From Nitrososphaeria archaeon (GTDB taxonomy: Archaea; Thermoproteota; Nitrososphaeria; Geothermarchaeales; JDFR-13): DNA of 64,000 nucleotides. The translations under genes were made by a program, and so were the position numbers. Positions 41,662 through 62,920 of the stretch are shown piece by piece. Numbering within the stretch: the stretch's first letter is position 1; every line of letters starts with the position of its first letter. Location of the stretch: the NCBI GenBank assembly GCA_027078545.1, contig JALWXN010000004.1:736001-800000 (forward strand), written 5' to 3'. The notes under the pieces were generated by a model. The model did no database searches and was not told the origin of the DNA. It saw only the letters and a list, made by a program, of their open reading frames with translations.

Positions 41662-41688
41662 ATTCAAAACCCCCTCTAATGACAAATA
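41662..41688 (-). repeat. Copy of recombinase-associated dyad motif
   Basis: Reverse complement TATTTGTCATTAGAGGGGGTTTTGAAT resembles 62151-62174 and 51596-51621. Confidence 0.6.
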
Positions 41689-41950
41689 ACTACTACTTAC
41701 ATTCTACGAGGAGACCTATAAATCCATCCCCTGATCAGAGTGGGAGGTACGGCTATCTATCCACCCATAACTATCTCCTCCTCTATGTCCTAACCTGTTA
41801 TGTCATGGGCATGGCCAATGCCGTGGATGGGTTATATGTTGCATATACATCTGTGTAGCCCCATCCTCAAAGGGTTATGGAGATACATATTGACCTATAC
41901 ATCGTGACTTGTGTATATACAGATTATACTATACCCGGGGGTGGTGAGAA

Positions 41951-42424
41951 ATGGCGGCACCACCCGGACTAGCATCTGACCTACACGTCTTCTTCGCTCT
42001 CATGGGTATGCTAGCCTCCTCCGCGGGGCTAGGCGTGTTGTTGGCTGGCTCTGATACGAGATGGGTTAGGAGGTTCGCCTTATTGGCTACACTCTTCATA
42101 TGGCTCTCCTGGATATCCTCCGCACCCGTATACATGTACGAATATGGTGTGGATAAGGCTGTAATCAAGTCTTATGAGGAGCTTAGGGCTGCCCACTCAA
42201 TAGGTATGGAGACGAAGGAGCATATCTTCTACACCGGGCTGATGCTCTCCACAGCCCTAGGCCTGATCGCATATGTCCTCGACCCCCTGGACCCCTTCTC
42301 CCGTAGGCTCTACCTAGCCATCTTCATCATAATTATCGTTGGCGGGATACTCCTAGACGCGCTGGGCGCCTGGATAGGGATCTCAGCCAAGCTCGGCTGG
42401 TACTACGGGGGTGGTGGGGGATGA
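41951..42424 (+). CDS. Hypothetical 4-TM membrane protein (H..G / H...METKEH motifs)
   Basis: Hydrophobic helices with conserved-looking His residues. Confidence 0.75.
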   Translation: MAAPPGLASDLHVFFALMGMLASSAGLGVLLAGSDTRWVRRFALLATLFIWLSWISSAPVYMYEYGVDKAVIKSYEELRAAHSIGMETKEHIFYTGLMLSTALGLIAYVLDPLDPFSRRLYLAIFIIIIVGGILLDALGAWIGISAKLGWYYGGGGG

Positions 42425-42738
42425 GGGAGAAGGTTGTATATGGAGCCGGCCTAGGATTCTTCGTCAGTAGTATGGTGAACGCCCTGCTTGTCATAGCCAA
42501 GGAGTATGACGAGGGGTTTAAGGAGTGGCTCAAGACAGTCTTTACCCACCACTGGCTTGGACATGGGATACTGGTGATACTCACATTCATAGTCTTCTAC
42601 CTACTAGGCTATGCAGCCTATCGAGGCGGCTTGGGAGTGGCTGTTGGTAGGACCTATGTATATGTGATCCTAGGATCTATACTCAGCCTAGTAATTATCT
42701 GGGGCTTCTACATCCTCCACTTCCTAGGGGTGGCCTAG
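42421..42738 (+). CDS. Hypothetical 3-TM membrane protein (HHWLGH motif)
   Basis: ATGA overlap with the upstream gene; THHWLGHG. Confidence 0.75.
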   Translation: MREKVVYGAGLGFFVSSMVNALLVIAKEYDEGFKEWLKTVFTHHWLGHGILVILTFIVFYLLGYAAYRGGLGVAVGRTYVYVILGSILSLVIIWGFYILHFLGVA

Positions 42739-42785
42739 CCACCCAACCCCTCTCCCTTTTTATAGGCTTTTGGATAGGCCCCGTG

Positions 42786-43169
42786 CTAGAGAGTCACTGT
42801 ATAGACCTTCTTTATCCCCCTAAGGCTCCTCAGCCTCCTAACCAGGCTCCTCCACTCCTCTCCATCATCCCTCGTTATGGCGACGGTTATACAGTACGAC
42901 CCGTCTAGGAGCTGGTGGTAGAGTCCCTTTAGATCCTCGCTGTAGCCGTGTAGGAGGGTCACTATATTCCTATCGACATACATCGTCTCCCCATGGTCGC
43001 TCAGCACTGCTATGAATCGATAGCTCCCATTGCTATCCCCCTCGTCCTCTAGGAGCTTCTCCACCGCATGTCTGATCAGGTCCGACCTACTGCTGAAGCC
43101 ACCCTTATGTACAGCCTCGTCCAGCCTCTTCAGTAGCCTATCTGGTATGGAGACTGATATTACCGCCAT
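42786..43169 (-). CDS. NikR-like ribbon-helix-helix metalloregulator
   Basis: VISVSIPDRLLKRLD...SRSDLIRHA RHH domain plus ACT-like C-domain with H..H...C. Confidence 0.8.
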   Translation of the reverse strand: MAVISVSIPDRLLKRLDEAVHKGGFSSRSDLIRHAVEKLLEDEGDSNGSYRFIAVLSDHGETMYVDRNIVTLLHGYSEDLKGLYHQLLDGSYCITVAITRDDGEEWRSLVRRLRSLRGIKKVYTVTL

Positions 43170-43181
43170 ATTATCAACCCA

Positions 43182-43277
43182 TTATTAATAGTTTGTAGAA
43201 GGGTTTTTAATAAACAAACCCCTAAAAAGGCCGGATTCTTATTAATGCTTAAATAGTCTAGAGAGTCCTGTTATTAA
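43182..43277. promoter_or_regulatory. Four TTATTAA/TTAATAA boxes between regulator and ATPase
   Basis: TTATTAA at 43182, TTAATAA at 43207, TTATTAA at 43239 and at 43271. Confidence 0.4.
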
Positions 43278-43281
43278 GGAA

Positions 43282-45069
43282 ATGAGTGGAGAAGGTAGGA
43301 TATTCATAATGCTTGGGCTCGCCTCTATAGCTGGTGTTGCCCTATACCTGTTGGGACAGGAGACCCTGGCTCTAGGCCTATACCTACTCGGTATTGGGCT
43401 ATTGACACTGGCTAGTCTGAGGGAGCTCATCCTCGAGCGGCACCTCACGGTCGAGCTGCTAATGGCTATCGTAGGATATATCCTCGTCTTCCATGGTGTC
43501 GTGTTTGAGGGTCTAATCATCTATGTGTTGTACTCGATAGCCGAGACGATGGAGGTACAGGTTAAGAGGCTCGCCCTACGGAAGATCGAGAAGGCTAAGA
43601 AGCTTATACCGCGTAGGGTCAGGGTATACCGCGACGGCGGATATGTAGAGGTGGACGCTTCCGAGGTTGCCCCTGGTGAGAAGATACTTGTGAGGAGGGG
43701 TGAGGTCGTCCCAGTCGATGGAGTCCTCCTGGGCAGGGGTGTCTTCGACACCAGCCTCATCACGGGTGAGTCTGTACCTATAGAATATGACGAGGGTGAG
43801 CAGGTTGAGAGTGGATATATAAACGTGGGTGACCCCGTCGAGGTACGTGCGGTGAAGAGCCCGGCGGAGTCTACTCTCCAGCAGCTTATTCTCAGGGCTA
43901 CCGAGCTGTTGGAGAACAAGGGGCGGGTGCAGAGGCTTATAGAGAGGCTTAGCCCCTACATGATAGTGACGGTTCTAGGGGTATTTGCACTCACATATTT
44001 CTTTGCCCAGGAGAGGGCTGTAGCTGTGCTCCTTGCTGGGTGTCCAAGCGCCCTGATCATAGACTCGGCAGCCACCACATCATATACAGTCTCCCTACTA
44101 GCCGGGCGTGGAGTAGTCGTCAGGGGAGGGGCAGCCCTCGAGTCGGGCTCCAAGGTGGGGAGGATAATCATCGATAAGACGGGTACACTGACGATGGGAG
44201 TCCCTAGGCCGGTCAGGGTAGTTCCGCCCGACGGGATGGATGTGGAGGAGTTTAAGGCCCATGTATCCGCAGTGGCGACGACCAGTCTACACCCAATATC
44301 CCGGGCAATAGCCACGAGTTGGCACGACTCACTAGTAGCTGAGGAGGCTAGGGAGTATCCTGGGAAGGGTGTCGAAGCCAGGGTGAACGGTAAGAGGGTA
44401 TACCTTGGGAGTAGGGAGTTCATCTCAAACCTAGGGGTGGAGCTCCCCGGTGAGGAGGCCTGTGGAGACGCGGATCTAGTGGTATATGCATATGTAGAGG
44501 GGTATGGGGCCGCCGGAGCAATATGCCTCGAGGAGTCTATAGATGAGGGGGTAGCCAACGCCGTAAGGGAGCTTCGTGGTATGGGTGTTGAGGTGGCTAT
44601 AGCGAGTGGAGATAGGGAGGAGCGTGTTGCCAAGGTTGCTGAGAGGCTGGGTATAGAGGAGTACTATGCCCAGCTGAAGCCCTGGGAGAAGACCGAGCTT
44701 GTGAGGAGGATGAGGAAGGAGTGTGGATGTAAGGTCTCGATGGTGGGCGACGGGGTCAACGACTTAGAGGCATTGGCTGAGAGCGACTTTGGAGTGGCTA
44801 TAGGCAATATAGACGCGGTGTCCAGCGTCTCCGACGCCGTATTGATCCATGGCTTCAAGGACCTTCCAAGCCTGCTGAAGAGGGCGAGGGCATATGTCTC
44901 TGGCCTATATGTCGGGTTCGCCGTGGCTACGGCTGTGAAGATCGTCACCATCGTCTTCGGACTCACAGGGATATTCCCACTATGGCTCGTAGCCCTGATG
45001 GGGGATGATGGCTCCACACTGCTCTCAACACTTGCCTCGGTGTTGACGGTCTATCTCCGTGGGAGATAG
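43282..45069 (+). CDS. Heavy-metal P1B-type ATPase
   Basis: TGES, CPS(AL), DKTGT, SLHP, GDGVND; no N-terminal metal-binding domain. Confidence 0.92.
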   Translation: MSGEGRIFIMLGLASIAGVALYLLGQETLALGLYLLGIGLLTLASLRELILERHLTVELLMAIVGYILVFHGVVFEGLIIYVLYSIAETMEVQVKRLALRKIEKAKKLIPRRVRVYRDGGYVEVDASEVAPGEKILVRRGEVVPVDGVLLGRGVFDTSLITGESVPIEYDEGEQVESGYINVGDPVEVRAVKSPAESTLQQLILRATELLENKGRVQRLIERLSPYMIVTVLGVFALTYFFAQERAVAVLLAGCPSALIIDSAATTSYTVSLLAGRGVVVRGGAALESGSKVGRIIIDKTGTLTMGVPRPVRVVPPDGMDVEEFKAHVSAVATTSLHPISRAIATSWHDSLVAEEAREYPGKGVEARVNGKRVYLGSREFISNLGVELPGEEACGDADLVVYAYVEGYGAAGAICLEESIDEGVANAVRELRGMGVEVAIASGDREERVAKVAERLGIEEYYAQLKPWEKTELVRRMRKECGCKVSMVGDGVNDLEALAESDFGVAIGNIDAVSSVSDAVLIHGFKDLPSLLKRARAYVSGLYVGFAVATAVKIVTIVFGLTGIFPLWLVALMGDDGSTLLSTLASVLTVYLRGR

Positions 45070-45114
45070 CTATAGATCCACGATTTATCAGTATATATCG
45101 ACTATATTATCCAC

Positions 45115-45993
45115 ATGATCCTGTTCGACTGGGGCACATATAACGGGCTCTCGAAGCTCAGGACGGCGGCACTACTCGGGACTAGGCTTACAGAGATACC
45201 CCCTAGGGACTTCAGCAGGAAAGCCATAGACAAGTCCTACTTCGAGAGGTATAGGGAGGCGGCCGAGGGGGTCTTCACAACCATAACGGCCCACGCACCA
45301 TACTACAACGTCGTCTCCCGAGACCCAGGAGTTATGAAGAGGAGCCAGGAGGCCCTCCTAAAGGCGGCCGAGATGGCCGTCGTGGCTGGCGCCGAGATCT
45401 ACAACCTACACCTCGGGTGGCGGGCCGGTAGGGAGGAGGACGACCTGAAGAGCGTCATAGACTTCGTCAACCAGGTCCTGGAGATCAATAATGACCTCGT
45501 AGTGAGTATAGAGGTTCCATACACCCCATCGATGCTAGGTACATGGGAGGAGATAGAGATGATTAGGAGGGCTACGGATAGGGAGCGTGTAATAGCCAGT
45601 CTACAGCTAGAGAATGTATGGATGCTGGAGAAGGGTGTCTATAGCAGCGGACTCTTCGAGGCTATGGATAGGGAGACGGACAAGGCCTTCTGGATGGGGA
45701 TATTTGAGAGGCTTACTGGCCTGACCCCCCACTACCTATCCCTACGCTTCAGCCAGATAATAGGCTTCGCAGTTGGGAGCAAGATCCTGAAGAAGCGTGT
45801 ACCACTTGGTAGGGGATACCCGTCACTCGAGCCGTTGGCCGAGGCCCTTGCAGAGTATATGGTGCGTAGGATGAGGAGTGGGGAGGAGCCTCTTAGGATG
45901 CATATAATCTACACGGGCCCCACTGAGACCAAGTATGCCGACACATTGAGGCTATACTCAGAGATCATGTCACGGGCAGTGGCACATCTATGA
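45115..45993 (+). CDS. Endonuclease IV / AP_endonuc_2-like TIM barrel, degenerate metal site
   Basis: TAHAPYYN, NLHLG, SIEV, GTWEE retained; later ligands apparently replaced. Confidence 0.7.
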   Translation: MILFDWGTYNGLSKLRTAALLGTRLTEIPPRDFSRKAIDKSYFERYREAAEGVFTTITAHAPYYNVVSRDPGVMKRSQEALLKAAEMAVVAGAEIYNLHLGWRAGREEDDLKSVIDFVNQVLEINNDLVVSIEVPYTPSMLGTWEEIEMIRRATDRERVIASLQLENVWMLEKGVYSSGLFEAMDRETDKAFWMGIFERLTGLTPHYLSLRFSQIIGFAVGSKILKKRVPLGRGYPSLEPLAEALAEYMVRRMRSGEEPLRMHIIYTGPTETKYADTLRLYSEIMSRAVAHL

Positions 45994-47717
45994 AGAGGAT
46001 TGAGAGGAGGAGGTATCAGGAGGAGGCCTTGGAATGGGCCCTTAGACACGACGGAGCAGTAATATGTATGCCCACCGGGACGGGGAAGACGGTCATAGCC
46101 GGGCTATGGATAAAGAGGATACTCGACAGGGGAGGTAGGAAGGTACTTGTACTAGAGCCTACGAGGATCCTGGTGGAGCAGACGAGCAGGGTCTTCAGGG
46201 ATATGGGTATCCCGGCCAAGCCGCTACACGGTAGCCTAAGCAGGGGGCTGAGGAAGGAGGCTAGGAAGGCTAGGGTGGTTGTAGCCACGCCCGAGATAAT
46301 CGTCTCGGAGGGCCTGGAGGAGGAGCCCGACGCACTAGTCGTCGATGAGTGTCACCACACGACTGGGCAGGACCCATATAGGATAGTGGTGGAGCGCATC
46401 AGGCCCAGGAGGAGGCTCGGCCTCTCGGCATTCATACCCCCTAGTAGGAGGGGCCTGATAGAGAGGAGCATAGGCGTGATACGCTGCTGGAGCTGGGAGG
46501 ATGAGGAGATACGTAGATACATGCCGCCCCTCGTGGCTGAGGTCTACGAGGCCCCACTGAACCAGGAGGAGTCGAGTCTCTACAAGACCCTCGAGAAGAT
46601 GTGGATCATGAGTAGTGGGAGGGAGAGGATGATGCTCGGGAACAGCCTGAGATGGTACGTCAGGGACGGTGCAGAGGCCCTCAGGGAGACCTATAGATCC
46701 TCGAGGAATATCCGGGAGATACTGGAGCCGCTGGGGGAGCAGCTCTTCAGCCCCGGGGTCAGGCCTGCACATAAGCTTGAACACCTGATCCGGGTGCTCT
46801 CTGACCATGAGGGCTTTAATAAGGCATATGTATTCGTGGACCGGGTGGTCATAGCGAGGCTCATCAGGGATAGGCTTGGTAGAGACTCGACTCTACTCAT
46901 CGGTAGGAGGCATGGGAGCATAGCCGCTAGGCTGGAGGAGGTAAGGTCTAGTGAGAAGAGGGTAGTGATATCCACCAGCGTGGGTGAAGAGGGGATCGAC
47001 CTACCTGAGGCGGATCTCCTAGTCGTTTGGAGCCAGGTCGCCAGCCCACTACGATTTATACAGCGTATGGGCCGTCTGCTACGGCCTGGGCAGACAGGTC
47101 AGAAATACCTAGTATTCATAGCTACGCCCGACACCATCGATATGGACAGCCTGGTCGACGGCCTAGCAACGGTGGAGAGGCTGGGCGTAGCCACACCAGT
47201 ATCGAGGGAGGTCCTCGAGGAGCTAATCATGATGAGTAGCCGACGCAGAGTACTGGAGGCCCTTGAGGATAGGCCCATGACCCTTGAGGAGCTGGCAGAA
47301 GCCACCGGTGGCGACACCGCCAGGACTAGGCAGGCCCTTAGGAGCCTATTGGAGGCCGGGATGGCAATCTACATATATACTGATCGGGGCAGGCTATACA
47401 CGGCGAGGCATGGGCTGGAGAGGCTCTACCAGGAGTATCGGGAATATCTGAGCCCTAGCCACGAGCTCGAGGCATATATAAACTATGAGGGTGCGAGCCA
47501 GGGTATAACGGGGAGGTATGACAGGGGGTGGAGCCGTCTACGCAGGGCCCTCCAGAGGCACGGCGTCCTAAGGAATATACATGGATATGTGAAGATTCTT
47601 AGGGGAGGGGTTCTACACCTGGCTAGGTATAGGTATTCATACCCGGTCTCGGAGGCGGAGGTTCTCGACGTGATCATCGACAACATCTACTCCGCGGACA
47701 AGTGGTTCAGGAGGTGA
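45990..47717 (+). CDS. SF2 DExH helicase (Hef/MPH1/FANCM-like) with C-terminal wHTH
   Basis: RRYQ, PTGTGKT, EPTRILVEQ, DECHH, STSVGEEGIDLP, QRMGR; then 'PMTLEELAEATG...ALRSLLEAG'. Confidence 0.85.
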   Translation: MKRIERRRYQEEALEWALRHDGAVICMPTGTGKTVIAGLWIKRILDRGGRKVLVLEPTRILVEQTSRVFRDMGIPAKPLHGSLSRGLRKEARKARVVVATPEIIVSEGLEEEPDALVVDECHHTTGQDPYRIVVERIRPRRRLGLSAFIPPSRRGLIERSIGVIRCWSWEDEEIRRYMPPLVAEVYEAPLNQEESSLYKTLEKMWIMSSGRERMMLGNSLRWYVRDGAEALRETYRSSRNIREILEPLGEQLFSPGVRPAHKLEHLIRVLSDHEGFNKAYVFVDRVVIARLIRDRLGRDSTLLIGRRHGSIAARLEEVRSSEKRVVISTSVGEEGIDLPEADLLVVWSQVASPLRFIQRMGRLLRPGQTGQKYLVFIATPDTIDMDSLVDGLATVERLGVATPVSREVLEELIMMSSRRRVLEALEDRPMTLEELAEATGGDTARTRQALRSLLEAGMAIYIYTDRGRLYTARHGLERLYQEYREYLSPSHELEAYINYEGASQGITGRYDRGWSRLRRALQRHGVLRNIHGYVKILRGGVLHLARYRYSYPVSEAEVLDVIIDNIYSADKWFRR

Positions 47718-47721
47718 TTAG

Positions 47722-48927
47722 ATGGGTTCACCCTTCCCCACATCGAGGATAACTATGTCGATACTCCTCCTTACAGCCCCACTCCTCATATACGGGGTAT
47801 ACGTCGGGATGATGTGGCTAGCCAACTTCTGGGGCCTGGCACCTGTGGATACGAGGATCATCCCTACACATCCCTCCACCATGCTATACCCAGTCCTCAC
47901 ACTATTCGTGATGGGAGTTGCATATACACTCCTACCCGGGTTCTGGGGATATAGGCCTAGTAGGGCTGTGGCATCCATATCAATAGCCCTATTTCTAGCG
48001 GGGGAGGCTGGGGCGCTCCTCCTATACCTACTGGGGAACCCGGCACCCCATCCACTGGTACTGGGCTTCCTAGGAGTCCTCGTCTACGCATCCTATATAG
48101 CGAGCCGGGTGAGGCTTAGATACCCGGTCTTCACATATGCCGATCTATACATCCTCCTATCGATAGCTATGCTCCTCCTCGTCTATGGATACAGGCTATG
48201 GATAGCCTTTGATAGGGGGCTGGTCTTCCCCACAGGCCTAGACTCCTACCACCTAGCCGTGATACTCGGCTTCGCCGCACCCATGATCTATGGGGTATCG
48301 GTCAGGACTATGAAGTTCAAGTTCACAGTCGTTGATAACAGGCTCCTAGCCCCATCCCTACTACTACATCTGGCAGGCCTCACGGCGCTACTTCTAGACA
48401 TGACCGGCTCCAGGCCGCCGTCACCACTAGCTATGACACTCCTACTGGGCTCCTCAGCACTCTATGCACTGGCCTACAACGTCTTCGAGCATAGGCCCGG
48501 GAAGCCCTATGAGGATAGGATGTCCCATAGGGACTGGAAGAGATATCTCTATTTCCGGAGGCATATAAATATGGGTGGGGCCTGGCTACTGGCCAGCCAT
48601 CTACTCCTACTCCTATACAGCCTTGGTGGGGACAGATATCTCTGGGACGCCGGGCTCCACAGCCTGACCCTCGGCTTCATAGCCAACTACATCGTGGCCT
48701 ATGCAGGTGTGATGCTACCCCCAATAACCGTTAGGAGGGCTCCCTACAAGGCCCTGAACCCCATACCCCTCGCACTTCTAAACATGGGAGTGGCCCTGAG
48801 AGTGTCTATAGACCTGCTCCCGCCCCTAAGGACTATGCAGGCCGCCCATCTACACGCGATGCTGATATACCTAGCCTATGCAGCCTTCATAGCCACTATG
48901 ATCCTCCTTTACAGGGAGGAGACCTAG
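47722..48927 (+). CDS. Multi-pass membrane protein, NnrS-like
   Basis: About 12 TMs; H..M...L.LF.MG, H...LGF, 'WDAGLHSLTLGF' motifs. Confidence 0.55.
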   Translation: MGSPFPTSRITMSILLLTAPLLIYGVYVGMMWLANFWGLAPVDTRIIPTHPSTMLYPVLTLFVMGVAYTLLPGFWGYRPSRAVASISIALFLAGEAGALLLYLLGNPAPHPLVLGFLGVLVYASYIASRVRLRYPVFTYADLYILLSIAMLLLVYGYRLWIAFDRGLVFPTGLDSYHLAVILGFAAPMIYGVSVRTMKFKFTVVDNRLLAPSLLLHLAGLTALLLDMTGSRPPSPLAMTLLLGSSALYALAYNVFEHRPGKPYEDRMSHRDWKRYLYFRRHINMGGAWLLASHLLLLLYSLGGDRYLWDAGLHSLTLGFIANYIVAYAGVMLPPITVRRAPYKALNPIPLALLNMGVALRVSIDLLPPLRTMQAAHLHAMLIYLAYAAFIATMILLYREET

Positions 48928-49247
48928 CCCTGGGAGACGCTATCCAAGACCCAGTTCAGATACTTCTCATAGATGTGTATAGGCTCCAGGACGATTATCT
49001 CGGGAACCTCATAGGGATGTATCTCAAGGATCCTCCTCTCCAGCTCACCAGCCATGTCGCGGGAGGTCTTGATGATCAGTAGGCTCTCCTCATCGTCATG
49101 GACCTCCCCCTCCCACCAGTAGATACTCCTGATATCCACGATGTTTACACATGCAGCCAGCCTCTCCCCAACCAGCTTCCCAGCCAATTCCCTAGCCACG
49201 TCCCTAGGGGCTGTGCATAGGACGACTACACCCTTACCACTCGTCAT
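48924..49247 (-). CDS. cutA: Divalent-cation tolerance protein CutA
   Basis: RLAACVN, SIYWWEG, IKT, HPYEVPEII. Confidence 0.95.
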   Translation of the reverse strand: MTSGKGVVVLCTAPRDVARELAGKLVGERLAACVNIVDIRSIYWWEGEVHDDEESLLIIKTSRDMAGELERRILEIHPYEVPEIIVLEPIHIYEKYLNWVLDSVSQG

Positions 49248-49284
49248 GGGTAATTGGTTCGGCTTCCCGAGGATATAAAGCGGA

Positions 49285-50709: not shown

Positions 50710-50970
50710 ACCACCATCCCCTCACAACCCCAGGGAATTCGTGAACACACCCTATACACTACAGAGAAATACTTAATACTATATAATGTACCCAGGATAG
50801 ACACGATGCCCATATACCACCAGCCTAAGACCCCCTCCACCACAAGGAGCGACACACTAGAGATCAGCTCCCTAGACACTGATTGACAACGCTACTTCAG
50901 GGCAAACCCCCATTCTGACGTCGAGGCTCCCCCGGTAAAGCCAGATTTCTATGCCCGATATCTTTTTTAC

Positions 50971-50997
50971 CATATAGTTTATAGCTAAGAAGTAAAA
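50971..50997 (+). repeat. 27-bp dyad element, copy A
   Basis: CATATAGTTTATAGCTAAGAAGTAAAA; 24/27 identical to the reverse complement of 58255-58281. Confidence 0.75.
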
Positions 50998-51090
50998 AAC
51001 ATGATGAGGCTCAGACCAATTTAGGGGCCTATTTCCCGACCCCTGGCCACGGGTTTAATCAGTTGGAGACAGTTATTCATTGGGTCTGGG

Positions 51091-51558
51091 ATGGCTGTGG
51101 AGACTGTGTGTCTCGAGCTTGGGTTCTTCCCTGGCTATCTCAGGCTGGAGGTGGAGGGTGATAAGTTGTTGGGGAGTGATTATGAGCCCCAGTGTATGGG
51201 CAGTCGCTCCACCAGCTCAGTAGTCGTGGAGAAGTTCCGTGTATACCTTGCTGGCCGTGACCCGGGCTTCACTCTGGAGGAGCTGGATATGGATCGCCAT
51301 GCCCTGCCCAGCTATACCAGGAGGGTCTTGGAGCTCGTCGCGACTATACCCTTCGGCGAGGTGAGGACCTATAAATGGGTAGCCCAGCTTGTAGGCGGAT
51401 CTCCAAGGGCTGTTGGGCAGGCACTGGCTAGGAACCCCTTCCTGATCGCGATACCCTGCCACAGGGTTGTCTCAAGTAATGGCCTTGGAGGCTTCACCTC
51501 GCTGGGCGGCCTCGACCTGAAGAGGGCGCTCCTACGCCACGAGGGTATAGAGATATAG
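51091..51558 (+). CDS. ogt: O6-methylguanine-DNA methyltransferase
   Basis: IPFGEVRTY, PRAVGQA, NP...IPCHRVV. Confidence 0.93.
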   Translation: MAVETVCLELGFFPGYLRLEVEGDKLLGSDYEPQCMGSRSTSSVVVEKFRVYLAGRDPGFTLEELDMDRHALPSYTRRVLELVATIPFGEVRTYKWVAQLVGGSPRAVGQALARNPFLIAIPCHRVVSSNGLGGFTSLGGLDLKRALLRHEGIEI

Positions 51559-51595: not shown

Positions 51596-51687
51596 TGTTT
51601 TCATTAGGGGGGGCTTCTGAAACTGGGTCAGACCCTTTACATAACCCTCTGTTTTGAAGCGGTTTCCTATCATTTCCCCCATATGAA
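51596..51687. repeat. res-like cluster of three dyads
   Basis: TTCATTA-GGGGGGGC-TTCTGAA; TACATAA-CCCTCTG-TTTTGAA; TCATTT-CCCCC-ATATGAA, lying between convergent genes. Confidence 0.55.
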
Positions 51688-51729
51688 GATTCAAGGCCCC
51701 TGATCCATGATCCCCGGGGTATGGATGCC

Positions 51730-52410
51730 TCACCTCACATCCCTGGCCAGTGTCTTGGCAGTCTCTATATGCTCCATCAGGAGGGTGAAGGCCTTCTCCA
51801 TCTCGTGTCTATCCACGATGAGGATCGTGTCTGTGTAGCATGACTCGATGTGGATTATGTTGATATTGTTTAGTGCTAGTAGGTTGGATATGTAGGCTAT
51901 GATGCCCGGGACCTTCATCACGTCTTCTGGACTGACTATGACGATTGCTGCGTAGCCCCTCCCCATCCCGAGGAGCTGATCCCGACCGATCTCCCCGAGT
52001 ATCCTCTCCACAAGTGTGTCGTCAATAGCTAGGGTCACGGCTAGTACGCTGTGCATCACGGCGAAGAACCTCGCCCTCGGAGCTATCTCGGGTAGGAGTG
52101 GGTAGAGCCTCGGGAGTGCGTCGGGCCTGAGGCTCAGTACAGATACTCCCGTCCTCACCTCTATGCTCGAGCCTGCCAGAACCCTGAGCACGTCATCCCC
52201 GGGGTATTCACCTGCACCTATCCTCTGGGCGAGGCGTATCAGCGCCATCTTTATCGAGTCGGTCGAGACCTCCCTACCCAGCTCCCTGGAGACGGGTCTC
52301 CTGAGTAGCCTCGCTATCCTCGAGTAGTTGGCTATCCCCCTAGCCAGGCATTGGCGCAGCACTGGGTCTCCAAGCACCAGTTCCTCCACAACTTCTGCCA
52401 CTGACCTCAT
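51730..52410 (-). CDS. HTH plus ACT-domain protein, predicted amino-acid-sensing regulator
   Basis: Start ATG 52410; 'GIANYSRIAR' helical N-domain; C-terminal ACT 'PGIIAYISNLLALNNINIIHIESCYTD'. Confidence 0.8.
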   Translation of the reverse strand: MRSVAEVVEELVLGDPVLRQCLARGIANYSRIARLLRRPVSRELGREVSTDSIKMALIRLAQRIGAGEYPGDDVLRVLAGSSIEVRTGVSVLSLRPDALPRLYPLLPEIAPRARFFAVMHSVLAVTLAIDDTLVERILGEIGRDQLLGMGRGYAAIVIVSPEDVMKVPGIIAYISNLLALNNINIIHIESCYTDTILIVDRHEMEKAFTLLMEHIETAKTLARDVR

Positions 52411-52412
52411 GT

Positions 52413-52452
52413 TCCAGGTATAACAATCTATGTTCCCACCGTTATATCTGGA
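52413..52452. promoter_or_regulatory. 12-bp inverted repeat (candidate operator)
   Basis: TCCAGGTATAAC-N16-GTTATATCTGGA (11/12 complementary). Confidence 0.55.
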
Positions 52453-52517
52453 TTCGGGGCTTGATTGGACTGTTCCATGTAAAGCATTATTTCCCACGGG
52501 CTGTACGGGGTGGACCG

Positions 52518-53867: not shown

Positions 53868-56800
53868 GTTAAAACCAGACTAGGAAGGGTTGAAAGCTTG
53901 ACGATGAAGACATAGAGCCACTCCTAATCAACGCAAAGTTAAAACCAGACTAGGAAGGGTTGAAAGTTTTTCTGTCTATTCTATATAGAAGGTATATTAT
54001 GACGGAGGTTAAAACCAGACTAGGAAGGGTTGAAAGTGAGAAAGTTTATAAAGCTCTTGTGGTCAGGAAACTCGGCAGTTAAAACCAGACTAGGAAGGGT
54101 TGAAAGTGTTGCCGTACTGGCTCTGGCAGTACTGGATGACATCATCGTTAAAACCAGACTAGGAAGGGTTGAAAGGGCCACCAGGCCGCCTCCTTCCACA
54201 CTACTTTCCAGGCCGTGTTAAAACCAGACTAGGAAGGGTTGAAAGTGAACTTTACCAGCAGGTCCAGTAACTCCTTTATGTCAAAGGTTAAAACCAGACT
54301 AGGAAGGGTTGAAAGGATCTCTGTTGCGTTTACGTAGATGTTGCTTAGCGAGACCAGTTAAAACCAGACTAGGAAGGGTTGAAAGGTATATGGATACTCG
54401 ACAACGTATCGACAACACTAAAAGTTAAAACCAGACTAGGAAGGGTTGAAAGTAGACAAGCGCCAGAAACATCCCAGCCAACATCAACACAAGTTAAAAC
54501 CAGACTAGGAAGGGTTGAAAGCAAAGTACTTTCTGAGCATGTTTGCGACAGCGTAGGCGGTGTTAAAACCAGACTAGGAAGGGTTGAAAGAGTACTGCTG
54601 GTCTCCAAGCAACGCTTGGGTGGATAATTCTGGTTAAAACCAGACTAGGAAGGGTTGAAAGGCTCCTCGACGAAGAGGGAGTACCACTCGAGAAGGTCAT
54701 ACAGGTTAAAACCAGACTAGGAAGGGTTGAAAGACAGGCGATTAGTCTAGTCGTCCCAAGCACCATAACCATGTTAAAACCAGACTAGGAAGGGTTGAAA
54801 GAGTGTTACTAGACCTTGGGCTGGTGGATGGCGTATTCTACCGTTAAAACCAGACTAGGAAGGGTTGAAAGACAGCATAAGCGGTGGGACACATCAGGTA
54901 AATGTGAGGAGTTAAAACCAGACTAGGAAGGGTTGAAAGCCCATATATCATGTACATTACTGTGTCATATGTGTCGACACGTTAAAACCAGACTAGGAAG
55001 GGTTGAAAGTCACCGATCCATGCTGCAAAGTCCTCAGACGCCCATGATTCAAGTTAAAACCAGACTAGGAAGGGTTGAAAGCCACGAAAAATGCGTGATA
55101 GTTTATGCTCACAGTTAAATTGTTAAAACCAGACTAGGAAGGGTTGAAAGGCAAGACCCAGCCCCCCAGCCTCAGAAGTGGTCTGAGGAATAGTTAAAAC
55201 CAGACTAGGAAGGGTTGAAAGCTCGATTGCTTGTGAGCAAAACGAGTGTTTAGAGGCGTATTCATGTTAAAACCAGACTAGGAAGGGTTGAAAGGTAACT
55301 CAGTCACATCCCGTGACTCATTCTTCACCATGTTAAAACCAGACTAGGAAGGGTTGAAAGATTCGGAATATGGAGGACTACATAGCATACATGAGTCTAA
55401 TGAGTTAAAACCAGACTAGGAAGGGTTGAAAGGAGTCTGGGGCGGTCTATGGAGTCGTCAGCAACACGGGGCGTTAAAACCAGACTAGGAAGGGTTGAAA
55501 GCCACTCCCTGATGACTAGTGGTATGTTGATGTAGAACACGTTAAAACCAGACTAGGAAGGGTTGAAAGAGTTCAGGGTCGACAGGGATACAGAGGCCAA
55601 CACACAGGTGTTAAAACCAGACTAGGAAGGGTTGAAAGCATATTTTGCACCTCCCTATTGAGTTCCGTCCTCGATCGATGGTTAAAACCAGACTAGGAAG
55701 GGTTGAAAGACTTGTATTTTGACATGATTTCGCTGACATCCATACCAGTTAAAACCAGACTAGGAAGGGTTGAAAGTGTCTTCCTAGCATCGCTTCTCCT
55801 CTTAGCTATATTTGTTAAAACCAGACTAGGAAGGGTTGAAAGAGTCGCAAAAAGACCGAACCAACCGTCAAAGTAGCAAGACCCAAGTTAAAACCAGACT
55901 AGGAAGGGTTGAAAGGTAGTTGCGTGGTAGCTCTATCGTCCCCCGTGAATTCGGCAAAGTTAAAACCAGACTAGGAAGGGTTGAAAGTCCCTGGGGGGTG
56001 GGGGTGACGTTCTCTTCACTACCTCGGTGTTAAAACCAGACTAGGAAGGGTTGAAAGGGGAAACGCCACGATCAGCGTGAACACTGGGAACGCCATCGGT
56101 TAAAACCAGACTAGGAAGGGTTGAAAGAGCACAGCCAAGAAACTCATAAAAGCCCTTGAAGAGATGTTAAAACCAGACTAGGAAGGGTTGAAAGGATAGA
56201 CTACCTCAGAACCCTGACACTCAACGAGATCATCGTTAAAACCAGACTAGGAAGGGTTGAAAGTAGGGCTCATCCATCTAAGCACCCCTATCTTTTTATA
56301 TGTTAAAACCAGACTAGGAAGGGTTGAAAGGAACTCTATGACTAGGTTCATGGTGTTGGTGATGATGGGGGTTAAAACCAGACTAGGAAGGGTTGAAAGA
56401 TGAGCTTATACCCCCCGACCTCGCTGGGGGGTAGCTCATGGTTAAAACCAGACTAGGAAGGGTTGAAAGCTCTACAGCCTATATGTTGCTGGCGACTTCA
56501 TATCAGAGTTAAAACCAGACTAGGAAGGGTTGAAAGTGACGATCATTTCCTCGCCGTGCTCCTCACACCAGAGCTCAGTTAAAACCAGACTAGGAAGGGT
56601 TGAAAGTTTTGATAGCACTATCCACTCGAGCCTATCTTCGTCACGATGTTAAAACCAGACTAGGAAGGGTTGAAAGTGTCTCTATTTGGCTGTCTTTTGC
56701 AAGGCTTCTCGCCCATGTTAAAACCAGACTAGGAAGGGTTGAAAGCATTCCGCAAAAAGAGACCGATTCCACCTAGGAGACCCATCAGAATAGTTAAAAC

Positions 56801-57094
56801 CAGACTAGGAAGGGTTGAAAGGGTCATCAATGAACTCTCGAACAACGCCGAGATAACTATGTTAAAACCAGACTAGGAAGGGTTGAAAGGCTCCTCGCAT
56901 CAGCGTACCATGTCGCATCACAGATCCTGTTAAAACCAGACTAGGAAGGGTTGAAAGTTACATACTCTATGATGTCTGGTAGGAAGATGAATGCTAGGTT
57001 AAAACCAGACTAGGAAGGGTTGAAAGCAAGCTCAGAGGCTACACGGGATACGAGGCGGGATGTGAGTTAGAACCAGACTGGGAAGGGTTGTTTG
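53868..57094 (+). CRISPR. CRISPR array: 46 perfect + 1 degenerate 29-bp repeats, 46 spacers of 37-47 bp
   Basis: Repeat GTTAAAACCAGACTAGGAAGGGTTGAAAG; terminal copy GTTAGAACCAGACTGGGAAGGGTTGTTTG at 57066-57094; counted by eye. Confidence 0.98.
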
Positions 57095-57181
57095 TTGGAT
57101 CTTGATTGTTGTTTGGCTTGGGTGTATTTTTTATTTTTGTTGGTGGGTTTACCTTTTGGTAGTATATTGGGGGTGACCGTT

Positions 57182-57403
57182 TTGGGCTACGTTACTGTGT
57201 CCGCCAAGATCCCTAGGGAGTTGAAGAGGTTGTTAGAGAGGTATGGTATACGTCCCGGCCCTGTTATCCGTGAGGCTTTGGAGGAGGCTGTCCGGAGGAG
57301 GATGGCTGAGGAGCTTGAGAGCCGTGCAAGGAGGCTTGCCGGTAAGGCTGGGGCTGGGGATGAGGATGTAGCTAGGTATATCAGGGAGGATAGGGAGAGG
57401 TGA
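57182..57403 (+). CDS. RHH antitoxin (VapB-like)
   Basis: TTG start 57182; YVTVSAKIPRELKRLLERYGI...IREALEE...IREDRER; GTGA overlap with the PIN gene. Confidence 0.82.
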   Translation: MGYVTVSAKIPRELKRLLERYGIRPGPVIREALEEAVRRRMAEELESRARRLAGKAGAGDEDVARYIREDRER

Positions 57404-57810
57404 GTGGATACCTCTTCGACACCAGCTCCATAATAAACATCCTCCTGAGGGGGCGTGTAAAGCCCCTCGTGAACGGCTATACACTCGACCTGGCACGGTA
57501 CGAAGCGCTCAACACTGTGTGGAAGATGGTTAGGAGGAGGGAGGGCTTAACACCAGGGGAGGCGGGTGAACTCGTCTCCATACTTGTCGAGCTCCTAAGC
57601 AACATAATGAGGATCATATCGATAACTGGTCATGAGGAGAGGGTCTACCAACTAGCATTGGATGAGGGTCTAACCGTCTACGACGCGGCATACCTATACA
57701 TGGCTATGGAGAAGGGCTTAACACTAGTCACGGACGACGAGAAACTGCTCCAGAAGGCTGAGAAGCATGTAGAGACGATGACCACGAAGATATACCTTGG
57801 CGAAGAATAG
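57400..57810 (+). CDS. vapC: VapC PIN-domain toxin
   Basis: LFDTSS, LARYEALN, LTVYDAAY, LVTDDEKL. Confidence 0.9.
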   Translation: MSGYLFDTSSIINILLRGRVKPLVNGYTLDLARYEALNTVWKMVRRREGLTPGEAGELVSILVELLSNIMRIISITGHEERVYQLALDEGLTVYDAAYLYMAMEKGLTLVTDDEKLLQKAEKHVETMTTKIYLGEE

Positions 57811-58254
57811 TAGAGAGCATTACAAAGCCTAGGATTGAACTTGAATCAAATGACACAGTTAGGAATCCTGTCAGAGGACATCCAGCCACACAAAGCCATT
57901 AAGCTACAAAGACACTCCGAAGAATGACGAGTAAAGTCTAGAGTCAAGCGAAAAAGAGAGGGTCGTGTAATATTGATCTCACAAAAATACTGGAGGAAAC
58001 CAGTTATTAAACCCTGAAAACAGGAAAATATCGTACTAAAAACATAGATCACGAGAAATATACATCGACACCACCCCAATAATAAGAAAGTAACTACTAT
58101 CTCACTCCGCCACGAAATATCCGTAGATATCAACCGAAAAACAAAAACTATGGGAAATTTTCGAACATTTCCAACACCAATGTGTCAGGCTCCCCTAGTG
58201 GGTAATATTATACCATTGGGGGTTGGCGATCTAGATTTTAATGTCGGGAGTTAA

Positions 58255-58281
58255 TTTTACTTTTTAGTTTTAAACTATATG
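58255..58281 (-). repeat. 27-bp dyad element, copy B
   Basis: Plus strand TTTTACTTTTTAGTTTTAAACTATATG with central TAGTTT-T-AAACTA dyad. Confidence 0.75.
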
Positions 58282-58405
58282 ATTTAAAATTTACTATGGC
58301 CTCCACGGAAAAGTGGGGACATTGGGAGGTGGATGGGTAGGGGATGAGCGTTGGATTACCAACGGGGGTATATGCTGTTTGTGCTTTGGCTGTGGGTCCT
58401 GGTGT

Positions 58406-60004
58406 TTATCTGTTTCCCATGCTTCTTCTTTGGAGTTTCCTCCGGGTTGATATGAGCCTTTCCCTTAACCTTGTCTTCCCTGATGTGTATTTGGGCTTAC
58501 GGTCTCTTAATAGCTGCTTGTCTATATGGTCGGTTGGGAGTCTTCCGTCGATGTCCTCGGGTATGGGTGTGTCGGCCAGGTATAGTATTAGGGGGGCTAT
58601 GTCCATTATCGACAGTTTCCCTCCTAATCCCTTCCTGAACCCTCTCCCTCCAAATGCGTAGAACCCCTCTCTTATGTGGAAGGATGGGGCTATCCTTATC
58701 GCTCTGAGATCGTTTACTTTGGAGAGGCTTGGCTGGCTGGGCTTGAATAGCTTCTTTCCCGTGCCTCTTGAGGCGAACCACAGTCTCTCATCTGGCTCTA
58801 GTAGGATGTCTGGGATGTCTGGCTCGGGATTTGGATTGCTTATAACCTGTTTAAAGAGCTTTACCCCGTCCACCTCCAGGTTCCGAAGCCTCTCCACAGC
58901 CTCATTTACAAGTTTTTCATGTTCCGATGCGTCTACGAATCCCTTTCTAAATATGCCTCTCAGGTTGGCTTTTAGACCCCCTACATTTACTAGGGGGAAT
59001 ATCTCTGTTCTCTCCCAGTCCACCATTGTCTGCATCTCCCTCGCTGGACTCTCGAGTATCAAGACACGGTTTATCCCCACATTTAGCCTCCTTTTAATGC
59101 TTTGCGGTAGTATCCTCCATATCCTCCTGACGAGGCGGTTTCTCCTCAGCCATGTTGCCCTTATCCTCCTAGTCCTCCTCAACTGTAGATATCCTAGATC
59201 CGCCAGTATCGTCAGCAGGTCTATAAGCTTGTCCTTCCTCCTATGTCCATGATCCGACATTATGATGTAGCCCGCCTCCTCCCCTAGATGATCCATATAT
59301 CTGCCTAGCCAGGTGTCGAGTCTCGCGAGGCATTTATAGACGTATTCCATGTAGTCGGGGTCGTCCATAAACATGTGGAGGAGGATGTCGGGGGTCATGG
59401 CTATGTAGAGGTGTAGGGTATAGTCCCCACGCCTCATCAATTCATACATTGCTCTGAGCCTCTCCTCCTCTACCTCCATCACCCTCCTGTAGTAGTCCTC
59501 AGGCCTACCGCTGTAGAATGGGTATCCGATCCTATAGCCCAGCCTGTTAAGGGTCTCGAGGATCTCGGCTGGGTAGATGTTCTCCGGCCTCGGCCTGGAG
59601 GGGCCTACGAATTCCTGCTCCTGCCCTATCCATACACCCTCCACCCTTGGTGCTGGGGTGCTTATAGGAATGTTCATGTAGAGCCCTCTATGCCCATGCC
59701 TACCGAGCCTCTCCCAGACCCCCTCTACACGTAGATCCTTTATCGACATGTATCGTAGGCTATAGTCCGTATCTATCACTACGAAGTTTATCAGGCCGTG
59801 CCTCGTAGGCCTATACCCGGTCAACGCTGCATACCAGTTCGCCGGCGTTACTATAGGTGGCTCCGCCAGTAAACCGTCCATACCACCCATCCCGACCAGG
59901 TCTCCCAGGTTGGGCGTATAGCCAGTCTCGACCGCCTCCCTAGCCACGCCGAGTGGCACACCGTCCCAGCCGAAGAATAGGATCTTCACCCCCTGCTTCA
60001 CCAC
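58406..60004 (-). CDS. Alkaline-phosphatase superfamily phosphodiesterase/sulfatase (COG3379-like)
   Basis: FGWDG, PPIVTPANW...TG..P..HG, PD..H, MSDHGH, 'SIMDIAP...IDGR'. Confidence 0.85.
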   Translation of the reverse strand: MVKQGVKILFFGWDGVPLGVAREAVETGYTPNLGDLVGMGGMDGLLAEPPIVTPANWYAALTGYRPTRHGLINFVVIDTDYSLRYMSIKDLRVEGVWERLGRHGHRGLYMNIPISTPAPRVEGVWIGQEQEFVGPSRPRPENIYPAEILETLNRLGYRIGYPFYSGRPEDYYRRVMEVEEERLRAMYELMRRGDYTLHLYIAMTPDILLHMFMDDPDYMEYVYKCLARLDTWLGRYMDHLGEEAGYIIMSDHGHRRKDKLIDLLTILADLGYLQLRRTRRIRATWLRRNRLVRRIWRILPQSIKRRLNVGINRVLILESPAREMQTMVDWERTEIFPLVNVGGLKANLRGIFRKGFVDASEHEKLVNEAVERLRNLEVDGVKLFKQVISNPNPEPDIPDILLEPDERLWFASRGTGKKLFKPSQPSLSKVNDLRAIRIAPSFHIREGFYAFGGRGFRKGLGGKLSIMDIAPLILYLADTPIPEDIDGRLPTDHIDKQLLRDRKPKYTSGKTRLRERLISTRRKLQRRSMGNR

Positions 60005-60062
60005 CCTGTCCAGTAAGACCCACCAGTCATCACTACTAGATAGTTGTGCGGGGCATAATTAT

Positions 60063-61244
60063 TCACTGCCCAGTTACGATGCCTATAAACCTGCTGAAAA
60101 TAGCAGGGGCTATCTTGAGTGGTGGTACGGCGAGGACTGAGAGTCCACTTATCAGGGCTAGGATCGCGGCGGCCTCGAACGCACCTGTATATGACGTTGT
60201 GGAGGCGAGTATCCTGAGAATTATCCCAATGTTCAGCGCCACGGTTGCGAGGTAGCTCCTCCCGAGGTCTAGGCCGGTGACTGCTCTGAAGACTATTGGT
60301 GCATGGCCCAGCAGCATGTTCCCTATATATCCGAGTGCGGCTGTATGTAGCACTATGTCTGTGTAGAACCACTCGCGTGACAGTGAGGTGTAGAGGTAGG
60401 TTGCCAGGGAGATCGCAAGCCATAGGTAAGAGGCCATGAGATGGTTATGGAGGTATGGGTCGACCCCTGGACTCCCCCTTAGCCTATAGTCCCTATTGAT
60501 GAGTAGGAGTAGTAGGGCTGACATAACCACTATGTAGTAGCCCCTACCCAGCATAGGCATGTCGAGAACTGAGGAGGCCATGATCATGAGGGGGATGCTC
60601 GGCGAGGCTATGGAGAGCATCGTAAGTAGCCTCCCAGGGCCGCCTAGGAACCTGGTCAGCTCGACCCTCTCACCCATTATGAAGAGTATGGGGTATAGGA
60701 GGAGGATCGTCCCATAGAGGTCGTAGGGCAGGACCTGGAAGAGAACCATGTTGAGAATGGCGAGGAGTAGGGATAGGTATGCCGCTAGGAACAGGATGAG
60801 GCTTGGGAAAGGTGTGTAGCGCCTCAGACCTATGTAGAAATAGGCCATCGAGAGAGTGCCAAGCAGGAGTGGATAGGATAGTAGGGTCACGGGTAGGCCG
60901 AGCTCTAAGAAGCGGTTGGCGAGGAGTAGGAGTGTCCCCGATACGAAGGATACTAGGGCTATTAGGAGGATATACCTAAACATCTCCACACCCCTGGGGA
61001 GGCCGGAGATACGCTCAACAGTTATCAGTACTGCGATGAAGCCTATGATTATGAGGCTGGAGTGGTAGTCATACACCATGTAGAGCCTCTCATGTAGAAG
61101 ACCTACTATCCCCCCTGTGTATCCCGGCGAGTATATGGTGACTAGCCTGGGCAGACCCACCAGGATGCCTAGGACCATGGATATTACCGCTACGCCCATG
61201 GCGGGGAATATCTTCCTATCGATCCGTCTCCACGGGGTGACCAT
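60063..61244 (-). CDS. Multi-pass membrane protein, NnrS-like
   Basis: H....GF....I..ER, I.GERVEL, 'TDIVLHTAALGYIGNMLLGHAP'. Confidence 0.55.
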   Translation of the reverse strand: MVTPWRRIDRKIFPAMGVAVISMVLGILVGLPRLVTIYSPGYTGGIVGLLHERLYMVYDYHSSLIIIGFIAVLITVERISGLPRGVEMFRYILLIALVSFVSGTLLLLANRFLELGLPVTLLSYPLLLGTLSMAYFYIGLRRYTPFPSLILFLAAYLSLLLAILNMVLFQVLPYDLYGTILLLYPILFIMGERVELTRFLGGPGRLLTMLSIASPSIPLMIMASSVLDMPMLGRGYYIVVMSALLLLLINRDYRLRGSPGVDPYLHNHLMASYLWLAISLATYLYTSLSREWFYTDIVLHTAALGYIGNMLLGHAPIVFRAVTGLDLGRSYLATVALNIGIILRILASTTSYTGAFEAAAILALISGLSVLAVPPLKIAPAIFSRFIGIVTGQ

Positions 61245-61344
61245 GACACTCTATATAAGGGTCACACCGAGGAAATAACCGTGTTATAAGTAATATTATC
61301 AATGACATATTGCCCAATAAGTATTGTTAAGAGGTGTCACACAG

Positions 61345-61506
61345 ATGGATGTCGAGATCCTTAAGGTAGGTGTTCGGGGCGAGATCTACCTGAAGAAGAG
61401 TCTGAGGGAGGAGCTGGGGATAGAGCCTGGGGAGTATGTCAAGGCCTATGTGGAGGACGGGAGGCTTATCATAGTCCCCCTTAAAGAGATCTTGAAGCCC
61501 CTCTAG
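61345..61506 (+). CDS. AbrB/MazE/SpoVT-family DNA-binding protein
   Basis: KVGVRGEIYLKKSLREELGIEPGE...EDGRLIIVP; ATG 61345. Confidence 0.85.
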   Translation: MDVEILKVGVRGEIYLKKSLREELGIEPGEYVKAYVEDGRLIIVPLKEILKPL

Positions 61507-61880
61507 CCCATTGCCCGGCTGAAGATAACGTGTATCACCATCGAGGATATCCATAGCGTGGGTATCAGTATAATGAGTAGGGAGGTGGCTAGGCTTAGCC
61601 CCCTACCAACCATGTCCTGGGCCAGGTAGTATATCAGCGTTACAGCCACGGGTATAAATGTGGATACGGCTAGGCATAGGAGGAGCGTCCTAGGCCTCTC
61701 ACTGGCCATCCCGAGTAGGAAGCCTATGAAGACGGTGGCCATAACCAGTGGGACCGGGCCGAAGAAGAAGTACATCGCCAGTATGACTATGCTCCCCACC
61801 AGTGAGAGGGCTAGTGGCAGGGAGCTGTCCAAACCCCTCCTCACCTCCGCCGAGACTCCCTCATAAACTTCTTTGTCCAC
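61503..61880 (-). CDS. Hypothetical 4-TM membrane protein
   Basis: Continuous hydrophobic helices; overlaps the upstream AbrB gene. Confidence 0.65.
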   Translation of the reverse strand: MDKEVYEGVSAEVRRGLDSSLPLALSLVGSIVILAMYFFFGPVPLVMATVFIGFLLGMASERPRTLLLCLAVSTFIPVAVTLIYYLAQDMVGRGLSLATSLLIILIPTLWISSMVIHVIFSRAMG

Positions 61881-62071
61881 TTACCCCTTAGGCTGGGGGT
61901 TATCTTCACATCCCTAGCTATATCCCTCTCAACCCTGACCATTGCGACGCCCGCCTCCTCATCGACCTCCCACACCAGTATATCCCCGACCTCGATCCCC
62001 AGCGCATGCCTAACCTCGGAGGGGACTACAGTGGCCCCATTGCCGTAGACCCTGCTCCACGACTCGGCCAT
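61841..62071 (-). CDS. AbrB/MazE/SpoVT-family DNA-binding protein
   Basis: SRVYGNGATVVPSEVRHALGIEVGDILVW; ATG 62071. Confidence 0.8.
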   Translation of the reverse strand: MAESWSRVYGNGATVVPSEVRHALGIEVGDILVWEVDEEAGVAMVRVERDIARDVKITPSLRGKWTKKFMRESRRR

Positions 62072-62174
62072 GTATAACGAGATTATACCGCCGCTGTAAT
62101 AAAGACCTCTCGATGTACCTCCCATGCCTACACGGGGGTTACAGGCCCAATATTTTCATTAGGGGGTTCTGAAT
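62072..62174. promoter_or_regulatory. Dyads upstream of serine recombinase (candidate res/operator site)
   Basis: GTATAA-CGAGA-TTATAC (62072-62088) and TATTTTCATTAGGGGGTTCTGAAT (62151-62174). Confidence 0.55.
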
Positions 62175-62191
62175 TCTAGGTGGGGAGGCCG

Positions 62192-62920
62192 ATGAAGGCG
62201 GTGGTATACAGCAGGGTATCCACCGAGGAGCAGACACCCGAGTCCCAGCTACAGGTGGTCCTCGACTATGCCAGGAACAGGGGCTACGAGATAGTCAAGA
62301 TATTCGAGGAGAACATCTCTGGGAGTGTCGACCCCCTGGAGAGGCCCGTCTTCAAACAGGTCCTAAGCTACCTCCGTGAGCATGAGGTGGATCTCCTACT
62401 CCTCCACGACATGACCCGTTTCTACAGGCCTCCCCCCGGCCAGGCGTCGAGGGCGCTCAGCATTATGAGGCGTATAATGGATGAGTATAACGTGTTGATC
62501 GAGTTCGTCAGCGAACCTCAGATCGATGATCCTATGCTCTCGGAGCTGTGGCGCTTCCTGAAGAGCTGGATCTCCGCCTATGAGAGGCTCCAGATAAGTC
62601 TACGTACACGCTACGGCCTCCTAAGGGTTAAGAGGGAGGGCCGGCTATACCATAAGCCAGACATAGTTTACTACTACGCCGCATGGATATTCAACAAGGA
62701 TTTGAAGGATGTTTCGAGGACGGAGTATGAGGTTGCTAAGAGGCAGCTGACCGAGATAGTCTCGAAGTACTGGCGGGACTCGGCACTAAAGAAGACGAGG
62801 ATCGGTGAGCTCCTGAGGAAGAATGAGCTTAACGGGCTATACTTGAGGTTTCCACACGCCCCTAAGAGCTACCTAACGTTCTACAGGCTGGTTATGGATA
62901 AAAAGGCTGTGGGTAGCTAG
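62192..62920 (+). CDS. Serine recombinase (resolvase/invertase family)
   Basis: YSRVSTEEQ catalytic Ser motif, ISGS...ERP, DMTRFYR, ERLQISLRTRYGL helix E, C-terminal 'SYLTFYR' HTH-like end. Confidence 0.92.
   Translation: MKAVVYSRVSTEEQTPESQLQVVLDYARNRGYEIVKIFEENISGSVDPLERPVFKQVLSYLREHEVDLLLLHDMTRFYRPPPGQASRALSIMRRIMDEYNVLIEFVSEPQIDDPMLSELWRFLKSWISAYERLQISLRTRYGLLRVKREGRLYHKPDIVYYYAAWIFNKDLKDVSRTEYEVAKRQLTEIVSKYWRDSALKKTRIGELLRKNELNGLYLRFPHAPKSYLTFYRLVMDKKAVGS

Follow-up and report, generated by a model that had tools for sequence, protein, structure and literature searches.

Plasmid multimers are resolved by dedicated systems such as beta/six and the ParA protein of RP4. For archaeal chromosomes lacking xerA, the replacement was left open by Cortez 2010 (PMC2958812), where another tyrosine recombinase was guessed, and the authors of a more recent review were not aware of any serine resolvase with a role in chromosome segregation (Benler and Koonin, 2022). 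Here, we report on a serine recombinase gene and a predicted res site of a hot-vent archaeon of Ca. Geothermarchaeota, the genome of which is available as a 1.24-Mb metagenome-assembled genome (MAG; G000) that is 92% complete. The analyzed stretch of 64,000 nucleotides, called the window in the following, corresponds to positions 736001-800000 of contig C4, and C4 and contig C1 share a 127-bp overlap, which yields a joined chromosome of 1.227 Mb. The parts of the locus are of a known kind, and their use on chromosome dimers is undocumented in the literature searched; within the incomplete coverage of this search, no report of the recombinase family or of its proposed role was found. We propose, with a probability of about 0.6, that a plasmid multimer-resolution module was domesticated as a chromosome-dimer resolvase and replaced XerA/dif in this lineage.

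Anatomy of the predicted res site and of the lone dyads

A preliminary description of this DNA reported one motif at three places, and all three copies are present and intergenic. The motif is rare, as a two-half pattern derived from it has three sole matches with ≤2 mismatches in 1.24 Mb and the next ones have 4, and it exceeds background, the looser dyad pattern of that description giving 5 matches on the main contig vs. 0.8 in shuffles. It is also strongly conserved upstream of homologous recombinase genes, contrary to the absence that the preliminary description had named as a refutation. From 45 non-redundant upstream regions of these homologs, with G000 and its near twin excluded, a half-site matrix was learned, and the resulting layout consists of a gap-4 dyad, a gap-3 dyad at +38 and a gap-1 dyad at +69, usually ending at the recombinase start codon; in a subgroup of homologs the second dyad lies 10–11 bp further out, which is about one helical turn. 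A scan of the 1.24-Mb genome for all three subsites together returned one match, 51598-51689, with a score of 49.6, while the next independent position reached 11.3. The spacers of 8, 7 and 5 bp described earlier for 51596-51687 amount to 4, 3 and 1 bp when gaps are counted between half-sites of 11 bp, and match the family register, and the Tn3-type layout suggested for them is borne out by a complete three-subsite arrangement (Table 1). The stretch 51598-51689 is a predicted res with a geometry that is Tn3-like but not that of Tn3. The three motifs are real but not equivalent: 51598-51689 alone is complete, and the copies at 62153 and 41661 are lone dyads.

Table 1. Predicted sites and neighboring genes, in window coordinates
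Feature	Position	Strand	Remarks
Lone subsite-II-type dyad, upstream of ABC ATPase gene	41661..41685	.	2 mismatches to local motif
O6-methylguanine methyltransferase gene, left neighbor of res	51091..51558	+	PF01035
res subsite I, predicted crossover site, gap 4	51598..51623	+	top dyad of the genome; core GG 51610-51611
res subsite II (accessory), gap 3	51636..51660	+	family register +38
res subsite III (accessory), gap 1	51667..51689	+	family register +69
ACT-domain gene, right neighbor of res	51730..52497	-	res-ACT junction also in G410
AbrB/MazE-like gene	61841..62125	-	PF04014; divergent from recombinase
Lone subsite-III-type dyad, just 5' of recombinase start	62153..62175	+	best gap-1 dyad of the genome, 19.1
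Small serine recombinase gene, 242 aa	62192..62920	+	PF00239, E 3.5e-23, residues 3-151

In subsite I, inverted arms surround the asymmetric 2-bp core GG. Across 24 aligned res sites, conserved complementary arms flank the core, the columns of which carry 0.15–0.22 bits and are non-palindromic in 23 of the 24 sites, and the two variable central bases fit the 2-bp overlap of serine recombinases (PMC5357621). Over its 26 bp, subsite I is identical in the congeneric genome G409. The res is flanked by convergent gene ends and does not lie in a promoter, and a promoter/terminator scan at the site found nothing. A reading of the motif as a replication origin element (ORB) was rejected, just two loose ORB-like matches being present, both far away. 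As a dyad similar to that at 62153 is found upstream of the recombinase gene in L001, L002, L004 and L006, this lone dyad is probably an autoregulatory operator. The meaning of the dyad at 41661 is uncertain: with the family matrix it reaches 15.7, which falls among the background dyads (16.8, 15.5 and 15.4), and it is kept in G409, a genome that is ~85% identical overall. It may represent a stray binding site or an unrelated operator rather than a crossover site.

The recombinase family and the occurrence of one site per replicon

The recombinase is the only product of a PF00239 gene in G000 and is 99% identical to a protein of Ca. Geothermarchaeota isolate S012_44. Its catalytic domain comprises residues 1-150, with the PF00239 match beginning at residue 3, in agreement with the earlier statement that an N-terminal helix-turn-helix (HTH) is absent. 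In an alignment of 55 homologs, the residues R8, S10, D73, R76, and R79 do not vary. An AlphaFold model shows a standard catalytic domain with a long E helix and a C-terminal domain of ~90 aa, which is all-helical in the confident model. For this C-terminal domain no convincing Pfam match and no Foldseek match at E≤0.001 were obtained; a fold search returned weak matches to HTH-type domains (Z 3.9–5.0), among them Tn3 resolvase (Z 3.9, rmsd 2.1, 46 aligned), which would be consistent with an HTH-like fold. An assignment to the large serine integrases was rejected, as this class exceeds 400 aa and carries a zinc ribbon and a coiled coil in addition, whereas the protein described here has 242 aa with PF00239 only. 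In total, 67 members of the family, each of ~240 aa, were found in archaeal genomes and metagenomes, and a scan of viral contigs for relatives confirmed none. Comparison with the congener L001 yielded dN 0.004 and dS 0.454 (dN/dS ~0.01), and strong selection on the recombinase gene and on res is shown computationally. The divergent arrangement of the AbrB/MazE-like gene and the recombinase gene is kept in the close relatives L098 and L235.

A res profile, the training alignment of which contained the sites of G000, G404 and G405 and left out those of G409, G410 and G411, gave a single strong full-length match in each of these genomes; G405 has in addition one weaker partial match (E 5e-5), and in G406 a weak adjacent match was found. 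Genomes of the order without the recombinase family gave no match, and two strong full res sites were found in none of 76 sources. The res is often separated from the recombinase gene, either by 0.35–10.5 kb or by location on another contig, the latter being the case in G410 and G411. Although locally reordered, most neighbors of res in these two genomes have their counterparts at 787-807 kb of G000; in G404 and G405 they map to no single region of it, so that synteny does not extend the terminus location to other genera. One family gene and one res each are also present on the Thermococcus plasmids pTBMP1 and THER333_p, both complete circles, with res ~2 kb upstream of the recombinase gene and in the same orientation; the gene is split in the record of pTBMP1, and the res of THER333_p is nearly identical to one of the training sequences. 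A plasmid homolog of T. nautili has the accession WP_285519979.1. Further family members reside in integrated or virus-like elements. With one res per replicon, the plasmid circles included, the ancestral role would most simply have been the resolution of replicon multimers.

Replication terminus, search for XerA and the proposed role of the locus

The res, at 787.6 kb of C4, is located at the replication terminus as defined by nucleotide skews. The cumulative skews indicate one origin at ~181-213 kb, flanked by cdc6 genes at 150 and 284 kb, the antipode of which falls at ~790-820 kb of the joined chromosome, and they have their maxima at 783.7 kb (keto), 784.9 kb (gene orientation), 788.7 kb (strand-corrected TA), and 799-803 kb (third codon positions). 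Including outlier maxima at 756 and 829 kb, all terminus estimates span ~6% of the chromosome. G407, assembled as a single contig and belonging to another genus, has a sharp TA-skew switch at ~1520 kb and a neutral stretch at 640-790 kb; a single serine recombinase of a different clade is encoded at 737 kb, which is 9 kb away from the antipode of the skew-defined origin (728 kb), and res was not identified there. Skew sampling of G193, G057, and G059 gave no interpretable polarity. As termini collect mobile debris, the terminus position alone is weak evidence, and it is not required in archaea either, since the dif site of Sulfolobus is situated outside the zones of fork fusion (PMC3020120).

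A search for PF00589 tyrosine recombinases gave no match in G000, G409, G410, G411, and G404, with 14/14 controls matching, and no archaeal XerA above cut-off was found in any of 17 genomes of the order. As the genomes compared are MAGs of 72–94% completeness, the lack of xerA cannot be taken as proven for any single one; in G412 and G413 neither the recombinase family nor XerA was seen. Across the phylum, families with canonical XerA (f6, f16, f21, f22, f25, f29) have two serine-recombinase matches in 63 genomes, and the families f12 (8/8), f14 (16/23), f26 (9/12), f30 (4/4), and f38 mostly show one serine-recombinase match and, with the exceptions of G358 and G362, no strong XerA match. This pattern is a lead only, because related genomes are not independent observations and neither enzyme is present in many of the families. 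Taken together, one site per replicon, the terminus position and the XerA search lead us to dimer resolution as the proposed function; the suggestion in the preliminary description of a chromosomal serine resolvase is supported by the Tn3-like three-subsite res. More tentatively, and at somewhat less than even odds, captured plasmid resolvase/res modules may have replaced XerA/dif in Geothermarchaeales at large and, probably in more than one event, in further families of Thermoproteota that lack XerA and carry a single lineage-conserved serine recombinase.

By analogy to Tn3/γδ, dimers of the recombinase would bind subsites I, II, and III. Homologous recombination would fuse sister chromosomes and thereby place two res copies in direct repeat; subsites II and III would build a synapse and activate a tetramer at site I, which would cut around the GG core via Ser10, rotate by 180 degrees and religate the ends to yield monomers, while the asymmetric core would permit parallel alignment only. 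On a monomer the single res would have no partner, its partner being the sister copy, and the terminus position may bring the two res copies near each other late in replication. Through the lone subsite III at 62153, the protein may repress its own gene. The synapses of Tn3-type systems depend on negative supercoils (PMC9943657), which counts against the proposed role in this host. As reverse gyrase is present in G000, which also encodes a histone, and gyrase was not found in this genome, the negative-supercoil filter may not apply as in Tn3; the directionality of archaeal XerA is likewise an open question (PMC8371274).

The locus might instead be the relic of an integrated plasmid or virus, resolvase and res having come with a mobile element near the terminus without any role in segregation. 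Many homologs belong to islands that also hold integrase, MCM, primase or Cas4-like genes, others are found on real plasmids, and the terminus region of G000 is rich in accessory genes, holding CRISPR, toxin-antitoxin and orphan genes. A mobile element would fit as the origin of the module; however, the low dN/dS together with the invariant site I, the persistence of res in four genomes of the genus once it had become separated from the gene and its surroundings had been rearranged, the OTCase linkage kept in a 77%-identical relative and the failure to find an integrase in G000 make a mere relic unlikely. A different chromosomal role, either as a DNA-binding regulator or terminus organizer with res and the lone dyads as its targets, or in the resolution of local tandem amplifications containing res, would account for the lone dyads at 62153, 41661 and C4:822934, which fall within ~45 kb around the terminus, two of them in promoter regions. 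We judge it rather improbable, as all catalytic residues are invariant and the full res keeps its crossover geometry between convergent gene ends and not at a promoter.

The preliminary description had also suggested that gene blocks, among them the CRISPR-bearing segment, may be shuffled through the dispersed sites, by inversion or excision. Relative to res, the dyad at 62153 is in direct and that at 41661 in inverted orientation, G410 and G411 have another gene order around res, and G409 carries a ~1-kb indel beginning ~50 bp from the dyad at 41661. Nevertheless, one complete res is present, the outlying copies have gaps of 1 and 3 bp instead of the site-I gap of 4 bp and lack accessory sites, two strong full sites occur at no locus or plasmid, and G409 is collinear with G000 across the three motif sites, so that such shuffling appears highly improbable.

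If domestication as a dimer resolvase is correct, captured resolvase/res modules would work on the DNA of a host with reverse gyrase and free of gyrase, which raises the question how a supercoil-sensing synapse works without gyrase. The locus represents a candidate for xerA-less archaea with a site predicted at base level (crossover core 51610-51611), and it is testable now because the same recombinase family is encoded on plasmids of cultured Thermococcus. Moreover, the resolvase it provides is probably thermostable and has a compact res.

Comparison with described recombination systems

With Tn3/γδ resolvase the protein shares its small size and intact catalytic residues, and its C-terminal domain may be HTH-like as well, judged by weak fold matches. 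The predicted res resembles that of Tn3/γδ in its three inverted-repeat subsites with distinct spacers and the 2-bp crossover core, the spacer of site I is longer by 3 bp than the one in site III as in Tn3 (PMC9943657), and subsite III adjoins the start of the gene in most homologs. In contrast to Tn3, in which the site II spacer exceeds that of site III by 9 bp (PMC9943657), the difference is 2 bp here, and the linker between sites I and II measures ~12 bp instead of 22 bp, with a family variant that is 10–11 bp longer. Unlike in Tn3/γδ, the crossover core lacks symmetry, the ~90-aa domain at the C-terminus is without a Pfam match, there is no transposon, and res lies 10.5 kb away from the gene. 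As the preliminary description had stated for the local DNA, searches of the genome, 92% complete, revealed neither a Tn3 transposase (PF01526 DDE transposase) nor TnpB. IS607 TnpA has a related catalytic domain, its structure 6dgc matching that of the recombinase in the fold search, but the recombinase differs by the missing N-terminal HTH and by an NF033518 score of 29 bits against a cut-off of 110, and it has no TnpB found with it. A serine invertase of the Hin/Gin type, for which two inverted crossover sites would flank an invertible segment, was rejected, given just one strong site-I-type dyad near the locus and the collinearity of G409.

Plasmid multimer resolvases such as Sin/resH (PMC9943657) likewise combine one serine resolvase with one site per circular replicon; they use two sites and another one to which a DNA-bending protein binds, whereas three inverted subsites are found here and the replicon is a 1.23-Mb chromosome. 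The archaeal XerA/dif system (PMC2958812, PMC3020120, PMC8371274) is alike in its one recombinase, one site per chromosome and proposed job; the location of the predicted res in the terminus region follows a bacterial Xer/dif rule that does not hold for Sulfolobus. The two differ in that serine rather than tyrosine chemistry would be used here, and in that a 92-bp site comprising accessory subsites and a core of 2 bp takes the place of the 11-6-11 architecture of the XerA site.

Repeated elements and lone dyads around res

The three-subsite res is bracketed by an inverted pair of a 35-bp AT-rich element that has only two copies in the whole genome (G000), and this pair is possibly a terminus-associated binding site. 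Both elements are retained in the congeneric genome G409, and in the relative G410 one element lies 3 kb away from res. G409 is without a segment of approximately 1 kb that corresponds to window positions 41738-42785 and holds two orphan ORFs in G000; the lone subsite-II-type dyad at 41661 is located about 50 bp from the start of this indel.

Features near the predicted res and on the plasmid pTBMP1
Feature	Location	Strand	Remark
35-bp AT-rich element, copy 1	window 50963-50997	+	inverted pair bracketing res
35-bp AT-rich element, copy 2	window 58255-58289	-	inverted pair bracketing res
Fourth lone dyad	G000 C4:822934-822958		subsite-II spacing; 23 kb past window end
CRISPR array	window 53868 to about 57050		29-bp repeat in ~47 copies
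AP-endonuclease-like TIM barrel gene and Hef-like SF2 helicase gene	window 45115-47717		mutually overlapping
Family gene of pTBMP1	L245:43434-44137		annotated in two pieces

CRISPR arrays and tRNA distribution

A VapB-like gene follows next after the CRISPR array, the repeat of which is shared by further arrays at 482-550 kb of the same contig (C4). All 28 tRNAs called on this contig are encoded within its first 510 kb, i.e., the origin-proximal part, and none at 510-1142 kb.

Serine recombinases of other clades and a plasmid-borne relative

Single serine recombinases with an HTH and a C-terminal CxxC...CxxC zinc ribbon are conserved within lineage in families f14, f26, and f38 (L073-L097), in which a strong XerA match is mostly lacking; no target site was identified for these enzymes. 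In family f12 (L078, L082, L085, L086, L088-L090, L093), a single-copy serine recombinase belongs to a clade other than that of the window. Upstream of it, a block of ~110 bp is conserved, containing a variable 2-bp core flanked by GG and CC, and it looks like a multi-subsite res of its own. The family gene of the circular Thermococcus plasmid pTBMP1 may be broken, and the res of this plasmid, a long-linker variant, is still recognisable.
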